From NCBI GenBank assembly GCA_934255455.1, contig CAKQNS010000003.1, positions 38,666 through 102,665 on the forward strand: 64,000 nucleotides of DNA, read 5' to 3'. A program made the position numbers and the translations under genes. Below the pieces are notes generated by a model that had not been told where the DNA came from, did no database searches, and worked only from the letters and a program-made list of their open reading frames with translations. The stretch is from an uncultured Alphaproteobacteria bacterium. Its GTDB lineage: Bacteria; Pseudomonadota; Alphaproteobacteria; Rs-D84. This document shows positions 2,906-56,322 of this stretch, piece by piece (the first letter of the stretch is position 1; each line of letters begins with the position of its first letter).

Positions 2906-2930
2906 AAAACCGCCCCATGGGGCGGTTTTT
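2906..2930 (+). terminator. intrinsic terminator of ssb
   Basis: AAAAACCGCCCC-AT-GGGGCGGTTTTT. Confidence 0.75.
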
Positions 2931-2933
2931 CAG

Positions 2934-2961
2934 AGTTCAAATACCAAAGTTCAAAGTGCAT
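2934..2961 (+). repeat. 4-unit heptamer array, AGTTCAA type
   Basis: AGTTCAA ATACCAA AGTTCAA AGTGCAT, starting 3 nt after the ssb terminator. Confidence 0.7.
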
Positions 2962-2990: not shown

Positions 2991-3023
2991 AATAATGTGT
3001 GCGCCATTCGGCGCACTTTTTTT
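2991..3023 (+). terminator. hairpin/terminator module; its 27-nt core recurs inverted at 46878..46904
   Basis: AATAATGTGTGCGCC-ATTC-GGCGCACT followed by a T-run. Positions 2991..3017 are the exact reverse complement of 46878..46904. Confidence 0.6.
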
Positions 3024-4167: not shown

Positions 4168-4299
4168 ACGGTCGCTATTCTATACTATCTTTCGGGAAAT
4201 TTCAAGTTTTGTATAAATGCACCCGGGAAATCGTTCCTGTGGCGGGTGGGGCGGGGTGCGCGGTATAATTTGGGTATCAGAGTTCAAAGGAGAGCATAC

Positions 4300-4773
4300 A
4301 TGCGACGTGTATTTCAATTTATTTTGGCCATGGTGTTGGCGTTTATTCCCGATGTTATTGGTGCCATGTTTTCACCACATGGGCCGTCCGATGTTTGGTA
4401 TAATGCGTTGAGCAAATCAGCACTGACACCCGATGGATGGGTGTTTGCGCTGGCGTGGACAATATTATACGCATTGATTGGTGTGTCGTTATTCTTGGTC
4501 ATACGCAGCGACAAAACGCGCCGTTCGAAAACGCCGGCATACTTGCTGTTTTTGGTTCAAATGGTGTTGAACGCAATGTGGTCGTATGTGTTCTTTGGTC
4601 TGCATTTGGCGGGTGCGGCATTGATAGTTTTAATTGGTCTGATTGGCATCACCATTTGGATGATGAGTGTGTTTCATGTTTTCGATAAATGGGCGTCGTA
4701 TTTACTGTGGCCATATTTATTATGGATGCTGTTTGCGACATACCTGAATGTTATGATTGTTTTGTTGAATTAA
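4300..4773 (+). CDS. tspO: TspO/MBR family tryptophan-rich sensory protein
   Basis: Five TM helices with characteristic Trp/Tyr-rich motifs (WYNAL, LAWTILY, NAMWSYVFFG, LLWPYLLWMLFATYLN). AAAGGAGAG Shine-Dalgarno sequence and TATAAT at 4265..4270. Confidence 0.8.
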   Translation: MRRVFQFILAMVLAFIPDVIGAMFSPHGPSDVWYNALSKSALTPDGWVFALAWTILYALIGVSLFLVIRSDKTRRSKTPAYLLFLVQMVLNAMWSYVFFGLHLAGAALIVLIGLIGITIWMMSVFHVFDKWASYLLWPYLLWMLFATYLNVMIVLLN

Positions 4774-4800
4774 AAAATCCCCGCAAACGCGGGGATTTTT
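4772..4800. terminator. bidirectional terminator between tspO and ftsB
   Basis: AAAAAATCCCCGC-AAAC-GCGGGGATTTTT. Confidence 0.75.
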
Positions 4801-4805
4801 AATGG

Positions 4806-5141
4806 CTATATTTTCAAAATCTTGAATTTAGGGTCGCCAATGTTCAGGTATTTTAACCCCAGTTCCTGGACATAATCGGGGCTGGCCGATTGCAATAATT
4901 CAATGTGGCGGTTTATGGCGTCCAGTTTTTCGCGCTGGGTCGCCAATTCGGTTTGCTCGGCATCCAAACGCCATATATTTACAATAAACCGTTGAACATT
5001 CACCGTGCCCCAAAATATGCGCACAAACATAAACAGCGCAAATGCAACCATTAAAACGCCAATCTTGCCACGCCAACTGGCATCCCAGGCGCGCCCAATA
5101 AACCCAAAGAAATTTTTGATTTTTTCCTTCATCGGTGCCAT
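4806..5141 (-). CDS. ftsB: septum formation initiator (FtsB/DivIC family)
   Basis: Single N-terminal TM followed by a coiled coil (LDAEQTELATQREKLDAINRHIELL) and a C-terminal YVQELGLKYLN-type motif. The start could instead be the ATG at 5132. Confidence 0.7.
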   Translation of the reverse strand: MAPMKEKIKNFFGFIGRAWDASWRGKIGVLMVAFALFMFVRIFWGTVNVQRFIVNIWRLDAEQTELATQREKLDAINRHIELLQSASPDYVQELGLKYLNIGDPKFKILKI

Positions 5142-27601: not shown

Positions 27602-29725
27602 TTATTTTGATGCGTTTATTGATTTTATCAATCCATTTATTGCAGACGGTAATACAGATTGCATGTCTAGTGCCTGGCATAATTCTTGTTTAGTCACGCC
27701 AACCTGCAAGCGCAGCATTTCCAAAGAAAAATATGCAAGTTCCGCTGATTCATTTGATTGTAAGAACTCGTAATGCATACACGATGCGTATTCGTTACCC
27801 ATGATACGTTTTAATTGATTTTGGGCGTCTTTCTTGTATGGGGCTATATCTTTTTGAAATTGTCTTATAAATTTATATGGCACAGAGTATTCTGCACAAT
27901 ATTTTGGCAGCCAGTACGTTATGGTGGCGTCAGTATGAAAAACTGTATACGCCCATAAAGCATCACGACTTTGTTTGAAACGCTGGGTTTGCGCATCGTC
28001 TTTCAGACACGCAGAACCAGTTTTCATGTTGTTTGCCAGTTGATTCAGCAATTTGTCATAATTCCCCTGTTTTACGTCCGTTTGAACTCTAAATACTTCT
28101 TTTTCAACCTCCGTCCAAATATCATCATCTGGATTAGTATGGTCTTCCCATTTGTCTAGACACTTGAAGCTGTTCATAAATTGCCAGAATACTGGTTTAG
28201 AATCATCAAATAGCACACGTGCATCGTTTTCATTGCCAGCAATTGTCATACATACTAGTGTAATTATAGTGTTTTTATACCCAACTATTGTATATAATGC
28301 TTTTGAATAAAATTTTATACCGACTTGCTCATAAGCATGCTCAGCTTCAATCATTAATGCGGGATTGGCGTCTGCTTGTGTGAATATTGAGCGCAAAATG
28401 TTGATTTTGTTTTCCAACAATCCATTCTTGATATCCGGCTCTAAGAGCACATACCTCCATTCATACGGCGACAAATTTTCTCCAACATCTATAATATTAA
28501 TAACACACGTGCGTCCGCGGCGTTCACCTGGACTGTTATATTTTTTATCATTAAATTTATATAAATTATTTGGGCTAATGCCGGGTTGTGGCTCCCACGT
28601 CTCTGGATATTCCACACGAATCTTGCGACCGTGTGTTTTCGGATCATTAGGATCAGATGTGTAAACACGCATATTTTTACTGAATGTCGGCTGTTTCACT
28701 TGTTGTGTGTATGTTTTTTTATACGGTTGGGGCGCGGTCGTCTGTAATTGTTCTAATACTTTTGCATCTATTTTTGCACGATTATTATTTGTTGATGGGT
28801 TTATTGTCGTGCTTTTTGTGTCTTCTGGAACGTATGTTGCAGGCGTGGCAACGCCACGCGTGAAGATACTATTTAACATGGAGTTTTTTGGAGCTTCGCG
28901 CATCCTGTAATAGCCCATATAATCGTATTCGGGCAATTTCCCTTCCGCACGCAAAAGTTGCCATTCGGTTTTTGGGTTATTGGGATCAGATGTGTAAACG
29001 CGCATATTTTTACTGAATGTTGGTTGGTTCACTTGTTGGGTGTATGTTTTTTTATACAGTTGGGGCGTGGCTGTCTGTAATTGTTCTAATACCTTTGCCT
29101 CTATTTTTGCACGATCATTATTTGTTGATGGGTTTGTCGTCGCACTTTTTGTGTCTTTGGGAACGTATGTTGCGGGCATGGCAACCCCACGCGTGAAAAC
29201 ACTATTTAACATGGATGGTTTGGGGGCCTCGCGCATCCTGTAATATCCCAGATAATCATAATCAGGAACCTCGTTCGTAAACACCATCATTTGCCATGCG
29301 GCCTTGTCTGGCTGTGTGGTGTTTAGTTTTGCATATTTCCCCAATGCCGGAAGATACATGTCAAACGGTATGACCTCTTTGTATCTTTCCACTGGGTCCA
29401 AGAAGAACGGGTCGCCGCGCTCGCCAGTTATAGGCCGACGAGCCCCCGCAACCCCAGCAAGGTTGCCCTGGCCATCGGATTTATAACCTGTTGAAAAATC
29501 AATCAGACCGCTTTCATCTTCTGGATTTACCTGTTCGACCCGCATTGGGTCATGCGTGCGAATATTTGTTGCGGGCAACACATCGTGCAGCGGGACCTTT
29601 GTCTTTTTTGCGGCCTGCAATGTAGGCTCGTGGGCACTGTATGATGATGCAATCGCCGACCAAGATAAAATTGATTGTAGTGCAGTACTAAAAAACAATG
29701 TTGATATAACGTATGCATATTTCAT
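27602..29725 (-). CDS. exported protein (707 aa) with a tandem 111-aa repeat, unknown function; low-GC island
   Basis: Signal peptide MKYAYVISTLFFSTALQS, two near-identical 111-aa repeats, and a C-terminal ~340-aa domain without recognisable motifs. Confidence 0.75.
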   Translation of the reverse strand: MKYAYVISTLFFSTALQSILSWSAIASSYSAHEPTLQAAKKTKVPLHDVLPATNIRTHDPMRVEQVNPEDESGLIDFSTGYKSDGQGNLAGVAGARRPITGERGDPFFLDPVERYKEVIPFDMYLPALGKYAKLNTTQPDKAAWQMMVFTNEVPDYDYLGYYRMREAPKPSMLNSVFTRGVAMPATYVPKDTKSATTNPSTNNDRAKIEAKVLEQLQTATPQLYKKTYTQQVNQPTFSKNMRVYTSDPNNPKTEWQLLRAEGKLPEYDYMGYYRMREAPKNSMLNSIFTRGVATPATYVPEDTKSTTINPSTNNNRAKIDAKVLEQLQTTAPQPYKKTYTQQVKQPTFSKNMRVYTSDPNDPKTHGRKIRVEYPETWEPQPGISPNNLYKFNDKKYNSPGERRGRTCVINIIDVGENLSPYEWRYVLLEPDIKNGLLENKINILRSIFTQADANPALMIEAEHAYEQVGIKFYSKALYTIVGYKNTIITLVCMTIAGNENDARVLFDDSKPVFWQFMNSFKCLDKWEDHTNPDDDIWTEVEKEVFRVQTDVKQGNYDKLLNQLANNMKTGSACLKDDAQTQRFKQSRDALWAYTVFHTDATITYWLPKYCAEYSVPYKFIRQFQKDIAPYKKDAQNQLKRIMGNEYASCMHYEFLQSNESAELAYFSLEMLRLQVGVTKQELCQALDMQSVLPSAINGLIKSINASK
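28634..29266 (-). repeat. tandem 333-bp intragenic duplication
   Basis: P(D/E)YDY(L/M)GYYRMREAPK ... NMRVYTSDPN(N/D)PKT occurs twice. The antisense pseudo-ORFs 28707..28910 and 29040..29243 are offset by exactly 333 nt. Confidence 0.85.
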
Positions 29726-31149: not shown

Positions 31150-31386
31150 ATGAGAATTGGACTGGAAATAGAACAAATCCGCCAGGAATTGGGATTGTCG
31201 GTTGTATTTATGTGCAACGCAATGGATTTAACAACGGGCGAATATCAAAGACTGTTATGCGGTCGGTACCGATTAAATATATTCCAATTGATTGGCTTTA
31301 TCGGTGCAACCTGTCGCCCTTTGCCGTTGAACGAACATCCGTCGCTGCTCTATCCCGCCACAACACAAAGAAAAGTTGGTAAGTGA
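31150..31386 (+). CDS. small putative HTH (XRE-like) protein (78 aa)
   Basis: IEQIRQELGLSVVFMCNAMDLTTGEYQRLLCGR weakly resembles an XRE helix-turn-helix. Start chosen at MRIGLE. Confidence 0.35.
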   Translation: MRIGLEIEQIRQELGLSVVFMCNAMDLTTGEYQRLLCGRYRLNIFQLIGFIGATCRPLPLNEHPSLLYPATTQRKVGK

Positions 31387-31407
31387 TATAGTGATGAAGT
31401 GATAGAG
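31382..31407 (+). repeat. 3-unit octamer array, AGTGATAG type
   Basis: AGTGATAT AGTGATGA AGTGATAG AG, directly before the terminator at 31417. Confidence 0.6.
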
Positions 31408-31416
31408 TTTTAGAAT

Positions 31417-33507: not shown

Positions 33508-34719
33508 TTATTTCAATCCAAATCCTGTATCCGTGTTTTGTGTTCCACAGAAATCAATTATACGTTGACGCTCGGCCTGAATATTTTTAATGGCGGTCGC
33601 ATACGGGTCAGCGGTTGATGCCGCCCCCGGCGCATTTGGCGAAACTACGGCGGTGCCACCTGCCGCATTGCCATCAGATGTATAGCATGTATTACCAGAT
33701 TTTGTATATCCCGTTTTGCACACCCAATTCCAACAGAAATTTTCTGTGTCTGGTTGATATTCAATGTATTCTTCCAGACCACGCAATGGGGCCTCGCCGC
33801 AGAAACGATATTGGCATTCCGGTTCCCAAAAATCGTCTTGCCACAGACCGTCCCACCACGATAATTCCGTGTCAGACCATGTTTCAGAACCATTTTTTAT
33901 GTCACCCTGTAAACAGCGGCGCACGCCGTATGCAACTGGTTGACCATTGGAATCGTTCACGGCGCAAAACATATAGTCACCAATTTCCGCCTGGCGTTGC
34001 CCCTTGTTAAACGCGGTGTGACAGCATGTAAATGCGCCAGTAATCGGGTCATCCAAACAATCTGTTTCAGAAAATAATTGTGACCCAGTGATTACGCCGC
34101 CCAGGACCATGCCAACGCCCGCGCCAATAGCGGTGCCGATGGCCGGTACAAAACTGCCAACGCCGGCGCCAGCGGTACCCCCACCAACAACACCACTGAC
34201 AACATCCCAAGCGGAATGTTTTGTATTGCCAGATGTGGCCGAGACGACGGCGGCTGTGCCGCCAACAACCGCTACGCCGCCAGCAACCTTGGCCTTGGTG
34301 GACATACCCTTCCAATTGTTTTTGACTGCGGTACCAAAACCGGTTTTCGTGGTATTGGGCGTGTTGACAACCGCAGGTGCCGCACCAGCATTGTTGGGGG
34401 TTGATGGGGGCGCAGCAGCGGGCGCCGGTGCAGATGTCGCAGCTGGCGCAGTTGTCGTGGGGGCTGATGTAGATGTTGTTGTTGCTGTTGGCGCAGATGT
34501 CGCCGCCGGTGTGGTTGCCGGCGCGGCATTAGGATTTATACCATTCGCGGGCATTCCTGTTGTATTAATGAATTGGCCAGTTACGGCATCGCGCCATCTG
34601 TGGTCTGACAGGCTTTGTACTGGAACAACATTCGGGTCGTTCCAATTTAACGCCCACGCATCGCTCAATAATGCGCACAATGAACACAAACCGATAAAGC
34701 ACACACGATTAAATTTCAT
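33508..34719 (-). CDS. exported protein (403 aa) with a P/T/A-rich linker, glycine-zipper segment and Cys/Trp-rich C-terminal domain
   Basis: Start chosen at MKFNRVCFIGLCSLCALLS. Its ATG overlaps the upstream TGA (TGATG). Glycine zipper GVGSFVPAIGTAIGAGVGMVLGGVITG. Confidence 0.7.
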   Translation of the reverse strand: MKFNRVCFIGLCSLCALLSDAWALNWNDPNVVPVQSLSDHRWRDAVTGQFINTTGMPANGINPNAAPATTPAATSAPTATTTSTSAPTTTAPAATSAPAPAAAPPSTPNNAGAAPAVVNTPNTTKTGFGTAVKNNWKGMSTKAKVAGGVAVVGGTAAVVSATSGNTKHSAWDVVSGVVGGGTAGAGVGSFVPAIGTAIGAGVGMVLGGVITGSQLFSETDCLDDPITGAFTCCHTAFNKGQRQAEIGDYMFCAVNDSNGQPVAYGVRRCLQGDIKNGSETWSDTELSWWDGLWQDDFWEPECQYRFCGEAPLRGLEEYIEYQPDTENFCWNWVCKTGYTKSGNTCYTSDGNAAGGTAVVSPNAPGAASTADPYATAIKNIQAERQRIIDFCGTQNTDTGFGLK

Positions 34720-35624
34720 CAATATACCCCCTGGGTCTGACAACTGGTGAATGGGACGCCGGCCGATTGACATTTTTTCAGTGCCGCCAAATCGGCGTCC
34801 AATATCGCCAATTTTTGAAAATATTTTGTGCAATATGCGGCGCGACGCGATGCCTGGCGTTCGATATATTTTTCTTCGCTTTCGATGTTTAATTGGCGGT
34901 ATGCACTGGTATCTTTGTACGGCGCATATCCAGCGGCCGCGTTTTCCACGCGTTCGGTAAACGATGCATCGGCGATTGTTGTTGGAAATGCGGCGCGTTC
35001 AACATGTTCAGTGCCCGCACCATTTTGCGCCTGTAATGTTTCCAATGTTTCGGCACGTTGTTTCATTTCAGTGCCCCATTCCACGCCGTTCCATGTTGGC
35101 GATTGTGGTTCGTATGGATTATCTATTTTGAATTCAGAATTGGCCGATGCGTTGGCGGCGGTTGCCGTTGGAAATGCCGTTGCACGACCAGATTTTGGCG
35201 CCGCAATGGCATAGTTTGATTTATATTCGGCAAATGTGGTGTCAATAAAACCGGCGCATGGTGTCACATAGTTATGGTTTGGTAAACTGGCCAATTGCAC
35301 GGTCAATGCCGGGCGGGCGTCATCCAAACTGACCCCGATGCAATTGTTATGTGTTTGGCAATACGATGCAACCAATGCCGAAACAACACGTGCGCAATCG
35401 CCCGTGTCAACATCGGTGCCCTGGGCATATACTGGTTGGGGCATACGCTGGTTATACGGGCTGGACGGTGTCCAAAATGGATTAGACGAATAATTTTGCA
35501 CATTTTGAATTTGCCCATATTGCGACATAATCTTTGGCGTTGCGGCATTCAGCGCGCCCGCACCAAATAAAGAGCAAAGAGCAGAGAGCAGAGAGCAATG
35601 AAAAAATAGTTTATTTTTTATCAT
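34719..35624 (-). CDS. exported protein (301 aa), unknown function
   Basis: Signal peptide MIKNKLFFHCSLLSALCSLFGAGALNA|A. Residues CSLLSALCSL are encoded by the heptamer array 35571..35598. The ATG overlaps the four-helix-bundle gene stop (ATGA). Confidence 0.7.
   Translation of the reverse strand: MIKNKLFFHCSLLSALCSLFGAGALNAATPKIMSQYGQIQNVQNYSSNPFWTPSSPYNQRMPQPVYAQGTDVDTGDCARVVSALVASYCQTHNNCIGVSLDDARPALTVQLASLPNHNYVTPCAGFIDTTFAEYKSNYAIAAPKSGRATAFPTATAANASANSEFKIDNPYEPQSPTWNGVEWGTEMKQRAETLETLQAQNGAGTEHVERAAFPTTIADASFTERVENAAAGYAPYKDTSAYRQLNIESEEKYIERQASRRAAYCTKYFQKLAILDADLAALKKCQSAGVPFTSCQTQGVY
35571..35598 (+). repeat. 4-unit heptamer array, AGAGCAA type; downstream arm of cassette 2
   Basis: AGAGCAA AGAGCAG AGAGCAG AGAGCAA; inverted partner at 36010..36037. 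Confidence 0.8.
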
Positions 35625-36010
35625 CGTGTTTTTTCTTTTTTTGTGTTTTGTTCTGATTTAATATTCTTTTCAGTTGTTTTTGTTGTTGCCGCCAACATTC
35701 GTATCAGTTCTTTGCAATCACGGGTCATAGAATTGTACGATTTGTTGTCGATATAATCGGTTTCTTTCAGCAAGCACAGCCAGTACAAAGTCTCGGAACA
35801 TTCTTTGTAGGCGATGTATATTTTTGCCAGAAAGTCTGATTTTGTAATGGCGCAGTCCGCTTCGGATATATTGGCGCCAATACTGGTTCCAGAACGCAAA
35901 ATCTGTTTAGACAGAACAAACTCTTGCTGATTGGTGCACAAAAACTTGTACAGATTTATAATCCGTATCGCAAATTTTGTGCTTTTTTCCAGGGCTATGT
36001 TCTCTCTCAT
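35621..36010 (-). CDS. four-helix-bundle protein (TIGR02436 / '23S rRNA intervening sequence protein' / Avd-like family)
   Basis: VLSKQILRSGTSIGANISEADCAITKSDFLAKIYIAYKECSETLYWLCLLK is the family core. It is a paralogue of 54656..55039. Start chosen at MRENIALEK; the listed start at 36031 lies inside the repeat arm. Confidence 0.85.
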   Translation of the reverse strand: MRENIALEKSTKFAIRIINLYKFLCTNQQEFVLSKQILRSGTSIGANISEADCAITKSDFLAKIYIAYKECSETLYWLCLLKETDYIDNKSYNSMTRDCKELIRMLAATTKTTEKNIKSEQNTKKEKTR

Positions 36011-36037
36011 TGCTCTCTGCTCTCTGCGCATTGCTCT
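36010..36037 (-). repeat. 4-unit heptamer array, AGAGCAA type; upstream arm of cassette 2
   Basis: Minus strand: AGAGCAA TGCGCAG AGAGCAG AGAGCAA, running directly into the ATG. Confidence 0.8.
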
Positions 36038-36050
36038 CTTTTAATAATAA

Positions 36051-44273: not shown

Positions 44274-44305
44274 TTGTTCTCTGCTCTCTCTTCTCTTTGC
44301 TCTCT
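44274..44305 (-). repeat. solo, degenerate heptamer array, AGAGCAA type
   Basis: The plus strand CATTGTTCTCTGCTCTCTCTTCTCTTTGCTCTCTT closely resembles the cassette-2 arm CATTGCTCTCTGCTCTCTGCGCATTGCTCTCTT at 36008..36040. Confidence 0.65.
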
Positions 44306-44332
44306 TAAAAAATGCCCCGTTGGGGGCATTTT
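44305..44332 (-). terminator. terminator of tig
   Basis: Minus strand: AATGCCCC-CAAC-GGGGCATT followed by TTTTTT. Confidence 0.75.
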
Positions 44333-46804: not shown

Positions 46805-46838
46805 AAAAATCCGTATGGTATTATAATACCATATATAA

Positions 46839-46866
46839 AGTTCAAAGTTCAGAGTTCAAAGTGCAA
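46839..46866 (+). repeat. 4-unit heptamer array, AGTTCAA type
   Basis: AGTTCAA AGTTCAG AGTTCAA AGTGCAA. Confidence 0.75.
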
Positions 46867-46877
46867 ATGAATAAAGT

Positions 46878-46904
46878 AGTGCGCCGAATGGCGCACACAT
46901 TATT
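46878..46904 (-). terminator. hairpin downstream of argS; exact inverted copy of 2991..3017
   Basis: The minus strand reads AATAATGTGTGCGCC-ATTC-GGCGCACT followed by a U-rich tract. Confidence 0.6.
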
Positions 46905-54212: not shown

Positions 54213-54614
54213 ATGTCGCGCAGAAGACAAAGAAATTCAGACGCCGCAATTTCATTGACGCCAATGATTGACATTATGACGGTGTTGTTGGCGGTGTTTA
54301 TGGTGACCACACCTATGATGACCACGGGCATTGATTTGGATTTGCCAAATGCCGGGCACACTACACTTACCGGGAATGACCACGCGATTCAGGTCAGTGT
54401 TGACGCATCGGGCCGGTACTATATTGGCGAAATGCAAATGTCGCGGGACGAAGTGGTTAAACGCGCAATCGCCATGCGTGGTGAAAACCCACAGTTGACT
54501 ATCATGATAAATGGTGACCGTCACGCGGATTATGGCGCGGTAATGTCGGTTATGGGCAAATTAAAGGACGCCGGTTTTCAGCGCGTTGGTCTGCGCACCC
54601 AGTTGGATAAATAA
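54213..54614 (+). CDS. tolR: ExbD/TolR biopolymer transport protein
   Basis: ISLTPMIDIMTVLLAVFMV with the conserved Asp in the TM, and a periplasmic ExbD fold. Confidence 0.8.
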   Translation: MSRRRQRNSDAAISLTPMIDIMTVLLAVFMVTTPMMTTGIDLDLPNAGHTTLTGNDHAIQVSVDASGRYYIGEMQMSRDEVVKRAIAMRGENPQLTIMINGDRHADYGAVMSVMGKLKDAGFQRVGLRTQLDK

Positions 54615-54615
54615 A

Positions 54616-54643
54616 AGTTCAAAGTGCAGAGTTCAAAGTTCAA
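54616..54643 (+). repeat. 4-unit heptamer array, AGTTCAA type; upstream arm of cassette 1
   Basis: AGTTCAA AGTGCAG AGTTCAA AGTTCAA, starting 2 nt after the tolR stop. Confidence 0.8.
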
Positions 54644-54655
54644 ACGGGGGCGCCG

Positions 54656-55039
54656 ATGAAAAACAATATCGCAATGAAAAAAAGTGAAGCGTTTGCACTG
54701 AGAGTGATAAAATTATATAATCATCTGACGGAAATTAAAAAGGAGTACGTGTTATCAAAACAAATTTTGCGGTCTGGTACAAGTATTGGTGCAAATTTAG
54801 CCGAGGCAGAATGTGCAATAACTAAAAAAGATTTTTTGGCCAAGGTTTATATAGCACTGAAAGAATGCGCAGAAACTCAGTATTGGTTGCGTCTGTTGAA
54901 AAATGCGAAATATTTAACCGCAACAGAATATAACAGTGTGTACAAGGACTGTAATGAAATTACAAGGATTTTGATGGCAACAACAAAAACAATAAATTTC
55001 AGGGATTCCGAGGACAAAACTTTGAACTCTGAACTTTGA
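54656..55039 (+). CDS. four-helix-bundle protein (TIGR02436 / '23S rRNA intervening sequence protein' / Avd-like family)
   Basis: VLSKQILRSGTSIGANLAEAECAITKKDFLAKVYIALKECAETQYWLRLLK. The last residues, TLNSEL, are encoded by the downstream repeat arm. Confidence 0.85.
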   Translation: MKNNIAMKKSEAFALRVIKLYNHLTEIKKEYVLSKQILRSGTSIGANLAEAECAITKKDFLAKVYIALKECAETQYWLRLLKNAKYLTATEYNSVYKDCNEITRILMATTKTINFRDSEDKTLNSEL

Positions 55040-55049
55040 ACTTTGAACT
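55022..55049 (-). repeat. 4-unit heptamer array, AGTTCAA type; downstream inverted arm of cassette 1
   Basis: Minus strand: AGTTCAA AGTTCAA AGTTCAG AGTTCAA. Confidence 0.8.
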
Positions 55050-55054
55050 TTATT

Positions 55055-55822
55055 ATGAGATGCAAGTTTGATATTTTTAAGTCTGAAAATTTATTGATGT
55101 CCGTGATGGGGCATCTGGTTGTGTTGGCGATTATGGCGACATCGTTCGTGGTGTTGACCAATCGGGCCAAACTGGTTGCGCCCGACCGGATTCAGATTTA
55201 TGAAATCGACCTGAATGCGGTGCGTGTTTCGGGTGACGAGACGATTTTATATAATGTAAATGCGGACGCGGCGCCAATACAGCCTGAAAAACAAACCGAA
55301 CCAACCCCCACGCCCACGCCCGCGCCCGCCCCGACGGACGAACCGCAACCGATAGAGAACCCGTCGCTGGTGGACGAACCTGCGCCCGCGCCAGAAAAAA
55401 AGCCCGAGCCCGAAAAATCTGCTGATACCCCGGCGCCAGATGACACCCCCGCCCCGCGCAAGAAAACGGTTGTTCGTGTCAATCGCCAGGTTGTATCGCT
55501 GGACAGAACATTGACCGTGTCGGTGGTTGATGCATTGCGTGTGGCAATGACGCGGTGTTGGGCCATTGATACGAACCATCCCGGCATTGGTGATATTCGC
55601 GCGGTGGCGCATTTGACCATGCGGCGCAATGGCACGGTGCGCGATGTGTGGTTTGAATCGGCCGCGCGCGAGAATACCGACCCAGCGTTTGCGTATGTTT
55701 TGGGCACAATTCGCAATGCGATAAACACTTGCCAACCGTTCCGTATGTTGCCTGCAAATGAATTTTCCAAGTGGGAAAAAATCCAATTGACCTTTTACCC
55801 AACCCAGGGGAAAGTTATGTAA
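55055..55822 (+). CDS. tolA: TolA/TonB-like energy transducer
   Basis: N-terminal TM (HLVVLAIMATSFVVL), a Pro/Glu/Lys-rich spacer (TEPTPTPTPAPAPTDEPQP ... EKKPEPEK), and a TonB_C/TolA-like C-terminal domain. Position after tolQR supports the call. The start (ATG 55055 or a later Met) is uncertain. Confidence 0.6.
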   Translation: MRCKFDIFKSENLLMSVMGHLVVLAIMATSFVVLTNRAKLVAPDRIQIYEIDLNAVRVSGDETILYNVNADAAPIQPEKQTEPTPTPTPAPAPTDEPQPIENPSLVDEPAPAPEKKPEPEKSADTPAPDDTPAPRKKTVVRVNRQVVSLDRTLTVSVVDALRVAMTRCWAIDTNHPGIGDIRAVAHLTMRRNGTVRDVWFESAARENTDPAFAYVLGTIRNAINTCQPFRMLPANEFSKWEKIQLTFYPTQGKVM

Positions 55823-55847
55823 AAAACGGGGCATTGCCCCGTTTTTT
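55821..55847 (+). terminator. terminator of the tol operon
   Basis: AAAAAACGGGGCA-TT-GCCCCGTTTTTT. Confidence 0.75.
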
Positions 55848-55850
55848 CAA

Positions 55851-55878
55851 AGTTCAGAGTTCAAAGTGCAAAGTTCAA
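55851..55878 (+). repeat. 4-unit heptamer array, AGTTCAA type (solo)
   Basis: AGTTCAG AGTTCAA AGTGCAA AGTTCAA, 3 nt after the terminator. Confidence 0.75.
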
Positions 55879-55933
55879 AGAATGTGTCCGCGGATCCAGG
55901 TTTGTTGATGTCGCGCGGCACGCGCCCATCCTA

Positions 55934-56146: not shown

Positions 56147-56160
56147 AAGAGCTATAATCT

Positions 56161-56184
56161 CTATCACCCTATCACTTACTCACT
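56161..56184 (-). repeat. 3-unit octamer array, AGTGATAG type
   Basis: Minus strand: AGTGAGTA AGTGATAG GGTGATAG. Same family as 31382..31407. Confidence 0.55.
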
Positions 56185-56322
56185 TTTCCTGTTCCCCTGC
56201 CCCCCTGGTGGCGGAAATGCGAAATTGGGGCGCCGTCGAAATCTTTTTTGTTTGTATATACACATTTTTTCTTGCGTCGATTGTGGATTTTTTTCTACCA
56301 TAAACCTAAAAGAGAGGAAGTC

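Follow-up and report, generated by a model that had tools for sequence, protein, structure and literature searches.

Inverted heptamer arrays around a four-helix-bundle gene at a tolR-tolA junction recall the intervening sequences of 23S rRNA and recur across bacterial phyla

The closest described systems to the element analyzed here are the intervening sequences (IVSs) of bacterial 23S rRNA that carry an open reading frame (ORF). In Coxiella burnetii, a 428-nt IVS in helix 45 of the 23S rRNA encodes S23p, a protein of the PF05635 family; RNase III cuts its 28-bp terminal stem, with the cuts mapped to mid-stem by rapid amplification of cDNA ends, and three or four tandem GACAGAT heptamers, variable in number among strains and treated as a local oddity, stand directly upstream of S23p's start codon (PMC4990558). 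S23p is apparently not made in Coxiella, where the ORF is decaying, and ORF-bearing 23S IVSs are also present in Leptospira, Haemophilus and Brucella (PMC4990558). A PF05635 gene has been reported between cmr3 and cmr2 (PMC3936711), and a gene of the family occurs at scattered 16S and 23S rRNA sites of candidate phyla radiation bacteria; repeats are mentioned in neither case. Here we describe a four-helix-bundle (4HB) gene of this family (PF05635/TIGR02436) that lies between inverted arrays of a 7-nt repeat at the tolR-tolA junction of an uncultured gut alphaproteobacterium. The 64,000 nt of contig CAKQNS010000003.1 that we analyzed (the window) form a housekeeping stretch with rho, ssb, uvrA, leuS, lpxAB, tig, rplM-rpsI, argS, ruvB and tolQRA. 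We found the same gene-plus-array layout in many phyla, and on balance we judge that the tolR-tolA feature belongs to a widespread class of small insertion cassettes that share the design of ORF-bearing 23S IVSs and, in this case, sit in an mRNA operon.

PF05635/TIGR02436 is a very large family without a known function: we counted 7,997 matches at 90% clustering, and in a library of 1.84 billion cluster representatives the family makes up 9,617 clusters at 50% identity. In many bacterial genomes, no long simple repeats are more over-represented than heptamers, an excess for which no explanation is accepted (PMC4692102, PMC4679880). In Xanthomonas, the common form of the GGGAATC repeat has four units, and ~70 convergent pairs lie inside operons, such as groES-groEL and atpA-atpG (PMC4692102); the paired “global regulator sites” of Geobacter metallireducens consist of 3-5 tandem 7-9-mers (PMC2700814); and TAACTGA repeats occur in Beggiatoaceae (PMC4679880). 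Like the arrays described below, these orphan arrays and the short tandemly repeated repetitive (STRR) sequences of cyanobacteria consist of ~4 tandem heptamers, lie between genes or inside operons, and often form convergent pairs; however, they were published as G-quadruplex elements, regulator sites or translational signals, and PF05635 genes are unmentioned. If the gene and the arrays are one unit, the puzzle of the family's function and that of the heptamer repeats both gain a testable handle, and cultured carriers with solved protein structures exist (BT_0352, XCC0516). A gene-plus-repeat design may then explain scattered 7-base repeats long seen in bacterial genomes, and the origin of rRNA IVSs would become a question about a general insertion cassette.

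Using Tandem Repeats Finder (TRF) on the window, we identified a period-7 array on either side of the 4HB ORF, whose neighbors are an ExbD/TolR gene (54213..54614) and a gene for a TolA-like protein with its ATG at 55055. The upstream arm (54614..54644, + strand; 4.4 copies) reads AGTTCAA AGTGCAG AGTTCAA AGTTCAA and is purine-rich on the sense strand. A 12-nt spacer with a GGGGG ribosome-binding site separates it from the start codon of the 4HB gene (54656..55039, +; 127 aa). The downstream arm (55018..55051, −; 4.9 copies) carries the reverse complement of the upstream word and encodes the C-terminal tail and stop codon of the ORF; the stop (55037-55039) falls within the array, which finishes 5 nt short of the tolA ATG, and 15 nt lie between this stop and the tolA start. 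A 13-nt repeat probe, AGTTCAAAGTTCA, allowing at most one mismatch, matched 12 sites in the window versus 0.03 in shuffled sequence. The arms are terminal inverted repeats, as in a transposon or a miniature inverted-repeat transposable element (MITE). They are predicted to pair as a 26-bp duplex (-36.4 kcal/mol; z = -10.5 relative to shuffled arms), and the minimum-free-energy and centroid folds predicted for the whole cassette both have the paired arms as their closing stem. An earlier note on this DNA had proposed a TIGR02436 ORF of 127 aa between tolR and tolA, bracketed by inverted AGTTCAA arrays of which the second encodes the ORF's end and stops 5 nt before tolA, with arms able to form an imperfect stem of ~28 bp; our profile matches, array calls and folds confirm this description, and the arms pair far better than the shuffled controls that it named as a check. 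We also observed that the downstream arm can alternatively pair with an array located after tolA (55846-55880; -39.1 kcal/mol), in which case the stem would enclose tolA instead of the 4HB gene. No Rfam family matched the arms or the cassette.

Comparison with relatives defines the insert. We retrieved TolR relatives with their flanks (L049-L056; L-numbers are our labels for compared genome loci) and compared their tolR-tolA junctions with that of the window. The junction reads GATAAGTGATGAAG in L049 and L050 (TolR 91% identical) and GATAAGTAATGAAA in L052 and L053 (TolR 85% identical); in all four, the tolR stop overlaps the tolA start, and no array is present. These empty junctions read TGATG or TAATG; at the filled site, the insert lies between TAA and ATG. 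In L054-L056, tolR and tolA are separated by a short plain spacer, with no array at the junction. Because the empty junctions lack the arrays together with the ORF, the block of array, spacer with ribosome-binding site, 4HB ORF and array (54615..55054, +; ~440 bp) is one insertion, which upholds the discrete insert that the earlier note had suggested. The cassette occupies the same place in strains of the same species and in L007-L009. A cassette also lies at this junction in the more distant genome L010 (RuvB 89% identical, 4HB protein 66% identical, word AGTGCAA). In a neighbor-joining tree of RuvB, TolQ, TolR and TolA, the carriers are the window clade and L010, and the sister lineage L049, as well as L052 and L054, has no cassette.

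Both the protein and the arms are maintained. The ratio of nonsynonymous to synonymous substitution rates (dN/dS) of the 4HB gene was 0.05-0.07 against orthologues at dS 0.27-0.61, with dS similar to that of tolR. The downstream arm is identical across the window, L007, L008 and L009, and the upstream arm differs among them at one or two positions, whereas the 12-nt spacer between arm and ATG is scrambled in L007-L009. Since the arms are nearly unchanged while the spacer is scrambled, the arms are constrained in their own right, and purifying selection acts on protein and arms alike.

The cassette and the rRNA IVSs share the protein family, a similar length (428 nt versus ~440 bp), terminal inverted repeats that form a ~28-bp stem enclosing the ORF, heptamers directly upstream of the start codon with a strain-variable copy number, and a sporadic distribution that points to horizontal transfer. 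With its 28-bp RNase III stem and tandem heptamers upstream of S23p, the Coxiella element (PMC4990558) bears out the likeness to IVSs that the earlier note had drawn. The differences lie in the host site, which here is a protein-coding junction in the tolQRA operon rather than an rRNA helix loop (the window contains no rRNA), and in the arms, which here are themselves heptamer arrays. In addition, the cassette protein is under strong purifying selection (dN/dS ~0.06), whereas the Coxiella ORF is decaying and apparently untranslated, and RNase III excision without religation is established for rRNA IVSs but would apply to the tolR-tolA cassette by analogy. In a literature search by family names and literal repeat strings, with subscription-only papers outside its reach, we found no statement of a family-wide architecture or of a link to orphan heptamer repeats. 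The suggestion that the cassette had no prior description therefore needs one amendment: no paper that we found states the architecture, but heptamers beside the gene were noted once, in the Coxiella IVS. As a class, the cassette is an ORF-bearing IVS generalized to mRNA operons, with heptamer-array arms and dispersed derivatives, and it is apparently undescribed.

The layout recurs in ~115 further genes of the family, from Alphaproteobacteria, Clostridia, Bacteroidota, Cyanobacteria, Spirochaetes, Chloroflexota, Endomicrobia and Poribacteria. In a genome sample (L006-L048; 42 loci from species-representative genomes plus one NCBI metagenome-assembled genome [MAG]), both arms were present in nearly all genes (~35/40). 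In an independent sample of 76 non-duplicate 4HB genes from metagenomes, 63 had both arms and two had neither, which answers in two data sets the earlier question of whether other 4HB genes carry arms. The metagenome arrays have period 7 in 133 of 135 cases and a median of 4.6 copies (interquartile range 4.3-5.0), and in 53 of the 63 cassettes the upstream arm is rich in purines and the downstream arm in pyrimidines. Both arms of one cassette always carry the same word, inverted. An inverted-repeat score of at least 14 was reached by 27 of 38 4HB genes and by none of 129 control genes from the same loci (Mann-Whitney p = 1e-16); the low scorers among the 38 are mostly artefacts of start-codon assignment. 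The gene-plus-inverted-heptamer-array layout is the rule for the PF05635 family across many phyla. Cassettes usually lie between co-oriented genes with gaps of 25-90 nt, and 32 of 37 have their upstream neighbor on the same strand.

The word itself is free to vary. We found AACAAAT in L006, AGAGTTG and AGAGTGG in Clostridia, AGGAATT and AGGAGTG in many Clostridia and Bacteroidales, AATTACT in Endomicrobium, ATGAATT and ATGAGTT in Flavobacterium, and a 9-mer, GTGTCTAAA, in Poribacteria. Complete sequences from cultured organisms include Nostoc punctiforme (AAGTCGG x4.6 upstream and ACTTCCG x5.7 downstream), Euhalothece (CTGGTCA x13) and Planktothrix (GGGGATT and CGATTTA types; its 4HB gene lies between drmD and pglX); the same layout is present in Nostoc ATCC 53789, Treponema saccharophilum and Chlorohelix. 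GGGGATT, the word type beside the Planktothrix gene, is also the word that was examined in Nostoc (PMC4692102). The 4HB proteins are 65-72% identical across phyla, and this identity, together with the AGGAATT word common to Clostridia and Bacteroidales, indicates horizontal spread.

A universal core motif read by the protein was considered and rejected: for 20 word classes, the best-rotation information was 3.52 bits, a value attained by 11 of 60 shuffles (3.34 ± 0.17 bits). Among 64 unique words, only AAT/AATT is enriched, and modestly so, a count in which relatedness is uncontrolled. Mismatches between arms were compatible with G-U pairing in 15 cases on the sense strand and 17 on the antisense strand, and G/T transversions were the commonest; these counts do not support compensation between the arms at the RNA level. 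Because the mismatches are not biased toward RNA pairs, the stem alone may not explain the heptamer periodicity, in correction of the earlier note. Strongly expanded arms also occur (L058, 1920-2182, 37.6 units; L042, 3359-3560, 22.4 units; L014, 2585-2698, 16.3 units), so array length is not always near 4.6 units.

The window 4HB protein matched PF05635 (E = 5.9e-30, 104.1 bits; cut-off 33.8) and TIGR02436 (E = 2.9e-32, 111.1 bits; cut-off 24). AlphaFold2 predicted helices at residues 5-26, 32-52, 57-83 and 89-125 (predicted local distance difference test [pLDDT] 91.4), and the TM-score of the model was 0.86-0.97 to 2RLD (BT_0352) and 0.70-0.83 to 2GSC (XCC0516). The conserved motif of the family is given as GxxRxxxSxxxNxxE (PMC3936711); R39, S43, N47 and E50 of the window protein are invariant or nearly so in both of our family alignments (A1 and A2), and the leading G is Q36 in the window protein's subfamily. 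The 2RLD and 2GSC entries contain five chains each, and the Xanthomonas structure is cited as a toroidal homopentamer (PMC4990558); by homology, the window protein is predicted to be a pentamer as well. A PDB search with the family profile matched XCC0516 weakly (E = 0.028), and its link to the family is drawn from structural superposition and from the Pfam assignment in PMC3936711. In the table of PMC4692102, Xanthomonas repeat #15 overlaps the annotated start of XCC0516.

The earlier note had also related the family to Avd, the partner protein of diversity-generating retroelements (DGRs). The structural comparison is in accord with this: the TM-score of the model to bAvd (4DWL/8UBE) is ~0.7-0.8, the two share the four-helix-bundle fold, and the relatives are pentameric. 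However, the cassette protein falls below the cut-offs of the Avd models (NF033474, 21.7 bits versus 80; PF22296, 20.9 bits versus 40), and neither a reverse transcriptase nor template and variable repeats are found nearby. Avd genes are not known to have heptamer-array flanks. A Pfam scan of the 45 largest ORFs in the window found no reverse transcriptase domain and no transposase; the neighbors of the cassette are ybgC-like, tolQ, tolR and tolA, and the 4HB gene is its sole ORF. The Pfam matches of that gene are PF05635 (above cut-off) and bAvd PF22296 (below cut-off), not the Y1 HUH transposase of repetitive extragenic palindromic (REP)-associated tyrosine transposases (RAYTs). The 4HB protein probably acts on the cassette's own nucleic acid.

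A second cassette in the window has the same architecture with another word, as the earlier note had seen at ~35.6-36.0 kb. Its upstream arm (36011..36039, −) reads AGAGCAA TGCGCAG AGAGCAG AGAGCAA on the gene's strand; its 4HB gene (35621..36010, −; PF05635 E = 1.9e-28, 99.2 bits; TIGR02436 109.1 bits) encodes a protein 56% identical to the first; and its downstream arm (35569..35598, −) is of the AGAGCAA type. TRF identified both arms, which are predicted to form a 29-bp duplex (-51 kcal/mol), with z = -8.9 for the whole-cassette fold. The next gene (34719..35624, −) encodes a secreted protein without a Pfam match; its ATG overlaps the 4HB stop (ATGA), and the hydrophobic core of its signal peptide, HCSLLSALCSLF, is encoded by the downstream arm.

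Relatives with the same neighborhood, between a peptidase A24 gene and the secreted-protein gene, form a decay series of this cassette. In L062 and L063 (~2405-2560), the last ~25 codons of the 4HB gene and the downstream array remain; in L061, only three CTCTCTG units are left inside the signal peptide; and L064 lacks an array and has another signal peptide. Because L062 and L063 keep a 4HB tail and one array, remnants of decayed cassettes are one route by which solo arrays can arise.

The window also contains four solo arrays of the same two words, which the earlier note had missed. Three are of the AGTTCAA type and on the + strand: one after the ssb terminator (2929..2957), one between argS and rplM, 12 nt from a terminator hairpin (46837..46867), and one directly after the tolA terminator hairpin (55846..55880); the first two were found with both the repeat probe and TRF, and the third with TRF and by reading the sequence. 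The fourth, identified by TRF, is of the AGAGCAA type and lies beside the terminator of the trigger-factor gene (44277..44306, −). Each lies ~0-40 nt from a terminator-like hairpin; three hairpin-plus-T-run sites that the terminator scan did not list were read directly from the sequence. All window arrays of at least four heptamers use one of the two cassette words. As in REP/RAYT systems, the repeat is dispersed, with two cassettes and four solo arrays sharing two words, and arrays are not exclusive to cassettes, since solo arrays and gene-less inverted pairs occur.

The post-tolA array has five units in the window and six in strains L001 and L004, and it is absent in L049-L056. At the same site in L009, immediately behind the tolA terminator, ATAGATA-type arrays form an inverted pair (4205-4934) around 676 nt of non-coding, repeat-rich DNA, and the post-tolA site therefore resembles a hot spot at which arrays insert. 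An identical 18-nt hairpin, GTGCGCCATTCGGCGCAC, that resembles a bidirectional terminator is located at 2999-3016 and 46879-46896, 12-42 nt from solo AGTTCAA arrays, and similar hairpins are present in L009. Gene-less inverted AGGAATT pairs were found in two Ruminococcus MAGs (L019, 1172-1342; L024, 4825-4947). Common to both pairs are a terminator-like hairpin behind the first array and an inner motif of 19 nt, CGGGTGCGGGTGTCCCGCC, but they show no clear similarity to the full cassettes in the sample, from which they might have derived by deletion.

The best-supported reading of the tolR-tolA feature is an IVS-type selfish cassette. Such a cassette would insert as one block at a gene junction in the sense orientation, would be transcribed by read-through from the host operon, and would use its purine-rich upstream arm as the leader for 4HB translation. 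In the transcript, the arms would pair into a double-stranded stem of 26-29 bp; by analogy with the rRNA elements, RNase III would cut this stem, which would free the cassette RNA and split the tolQR message from the tolA message. The cassette would then be inherited vertically, with its protein and arms under purifying selection, and decay by deletion would leave arrays on their own or as inverted pairs without a gene, which would explain the window's four solo arrays. The observations behind this reading are the architecture and its generality, the empty sites, one decay remnant, the selection on ORF and arms, and the predicted pairing of the arms. From stem formation onward, the steps are ones that we infer, as are RNase III cleavage at tolR-tolA, the movement of the cassette and the role of its protein.

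Several points weigh against this reading. No target-site duplication is visible at tolR-tolA, where at most one A could be duplicated, and the cassette encodes no mobility enzyme. The distribution at this junction requires either that a cassette was gained twice at one place or that it was gained once and lost three times without a scar. Because the end of the ORF overlaps the downstream arm, ribosomes that translate it would melt the stem. The mismatches between arms are not biased toward RNA pairing, and the heptamer word, besides pairing, seems to be under selection: the differences between arms are not RNA-compensatory, fall at fixed degenerate positions (G/T, A/G), and are dominated by transversions. 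A plain stem does not explain the near-universal period of 7 with a free word, or the uniform array length near 4.6 units. In Xanthomonas, gene-less pairs far outnumber 4HB genes (PMC4692102), which fits active spread better than simple decay. The period of 7 with a free word, the held length and the non-compensated differences suggest something that counts heptamers, for which a pentameric protein is the obvious candidate.

The main alternative, which we consider possible though improbable, is accordingly a partnership of protein and repeat, in which a 4HB pentamer would bind the arrays as RNA or single-stranded DNA with about one heptamer per subunit, as the ring of the trp RNA-binding attenuation protein (TRAP) binds spaced triplets. 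The flanking arrays would then serve autoregulation, and the other arrays would be regulated targets or would be spread or maintained by the protein, as REP sequences are by RAYTs. A ring reading ~five heptamers would explain why arrays cluster at 4.3-5.0 units whatever their sequence. Also consistent with a partnership are the period of 7 irrespective of word, the five chains in both solved family structures and the cited toroidal homopentamer (PMC4990558), the variation within arrays at fixed degenerate positions (G/T, A/G) that is uncompensated between arms, the use of same-genome cassette words by solo arrays, the strong purifying selection on the protein, and the place of the related Avd in an RNA-protein complex (8UBE). 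However, proteins that are 72% identical accompany unrelated words (AGTTCAA in the window, AACAAAT in L006), whereas the protein of L010, which has the window's word type, is only 66% identical; the 20 word classes have no common core motif, with a weak AAT excess in the 64 words; the L062 remnant shows that solo arrays can come from decay; and S23p is apparently not made in Coxiella (PMC4990558). In its widest form, this alternative would make PF05635 pentamers the missing partners of bacterial heptamer repeats, with a ring that reads ~five heptamers and a protein that drives array spread, upkeep or regulation, and would thereby give the cause of the heptamer excess (STRR, GGGAATC, Geobacter, TAACTGA) and the origin of ORF-bearing rRNA IVSs; we offer this tentatively and think it doubtful. 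The connection of the Geobacter and Beggiatoaceae arrays to PF05635 cassettes, in particular, is putative.

A transposon acting at the DNA level is less likely still. The arrays would be terminal inverted repeats for a transposase or recombinase supplied in trans, gene-less pairs would be MITEs, and the 4HB gene would be a passenger or an accessory. The arms are indeed inverted, a site has either the complete unit or none of it, its spread over taxa is patchy, and gene-less pairs lie inside operons (L019, L024, and ~70 in Xanthomonas; PMC4692102). Insertion sequences with their MITEs, and REP/RAYT systems (REPtrons), likewise place a small gene between inverted copies of a short repeat that is dispersed between genes, often by terminators, and that also forms gene-less inverted pairs. 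In contrast to those systems, the cassette protein is a four-helix bundle in which no nuclease or transposase fold is recognized, tandem heptamer arrays take the place of single palindromes, and no target-site duplication was seen, at tolR-tolA in particular. Furthermore, the Pfam scan found no transposase, the 4HB gene is the only cargo ever seen, and the purine-rich arm is almost always 5' of the gene (53/63), which a symmetric DNA site does not require. We give very little weight to a non-autonomous retroelement, an idea that is purely analogical, in which a stem-closed cassette RNA with its Avd-like protein would be copied by a reverse transcriptase encoded elsewhere and reinserted. The related Avd is a partner that the DGR reverse transcriptase requires, cassettes insert in the sense orientation, and solo arrays adjoin transcript 3' ends at terminators, but no reverse transcriptase lies near any cassette examined, the Avd models match far under their cut-offs (21.7 versus 80 and 20.9 versus 40 bits), and no poly-A or priming feature was seen. 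That ordinary slippage-prone simple repeats merely happen to adjoin the gene might be suggested by the variable copy number among strains (five versus six units after tolA, and two versus three in Coxiella) and by the abundance of heptamer repeats in some genomes. It is the least credible explanation, and it is refuted by the flanks of 27 of 38 4HB genes versus none of 129 controls and by the replication in 76 metagenome loci; in addition, both arms always carry the same word, inverted.

Cassettes lie within essential or defence operons (tolQRA, the accB side in Xanthomonas, cmr3-cmr2 and drmD-pglX) and may therefore cleave polycistronic messages or uncouple their parts. Programs that search for repeats or CRISPRs are also likely to be misled by the arrays. 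Phages were rejected as the main vehicle: a homologue was present in two of 50,697 phage records, and the one inspected had no arrays. Several cassettes are wedged into defence or mobile-element gene sets, including those of Planktothrix (p1, L147), between DISARM drmD and BREX pglX, of Chlorohelix (L146), and of Nostoc plasmids (L057, L058). One such cassette lies between a DUF1156 gene and a Swt1-HEPN gene, and others are beside tnsA/tnsB-like and xisH/xisI genes.

Further repeats in the window fall outside the heptamer arrays. Period-8 arrays (AAGTGATA and variants) are present at 31381-31408 and ~56158-56187; one degenerate copy of these lies upstream of a giant ORF, which begins at 56248 and continues beyond the window. 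At the equivalent place in relatives, 8-mer arrays with different words were found (L049, 4429-4472; L050, 4257-4292; L051, 3725-3788). Lastly, a 333-bp tandem duplication (28635-29272; 1.9 copies, 86% identical) lies inside a 707-aa ORF (27602..29725, −) that has no Pfam match.

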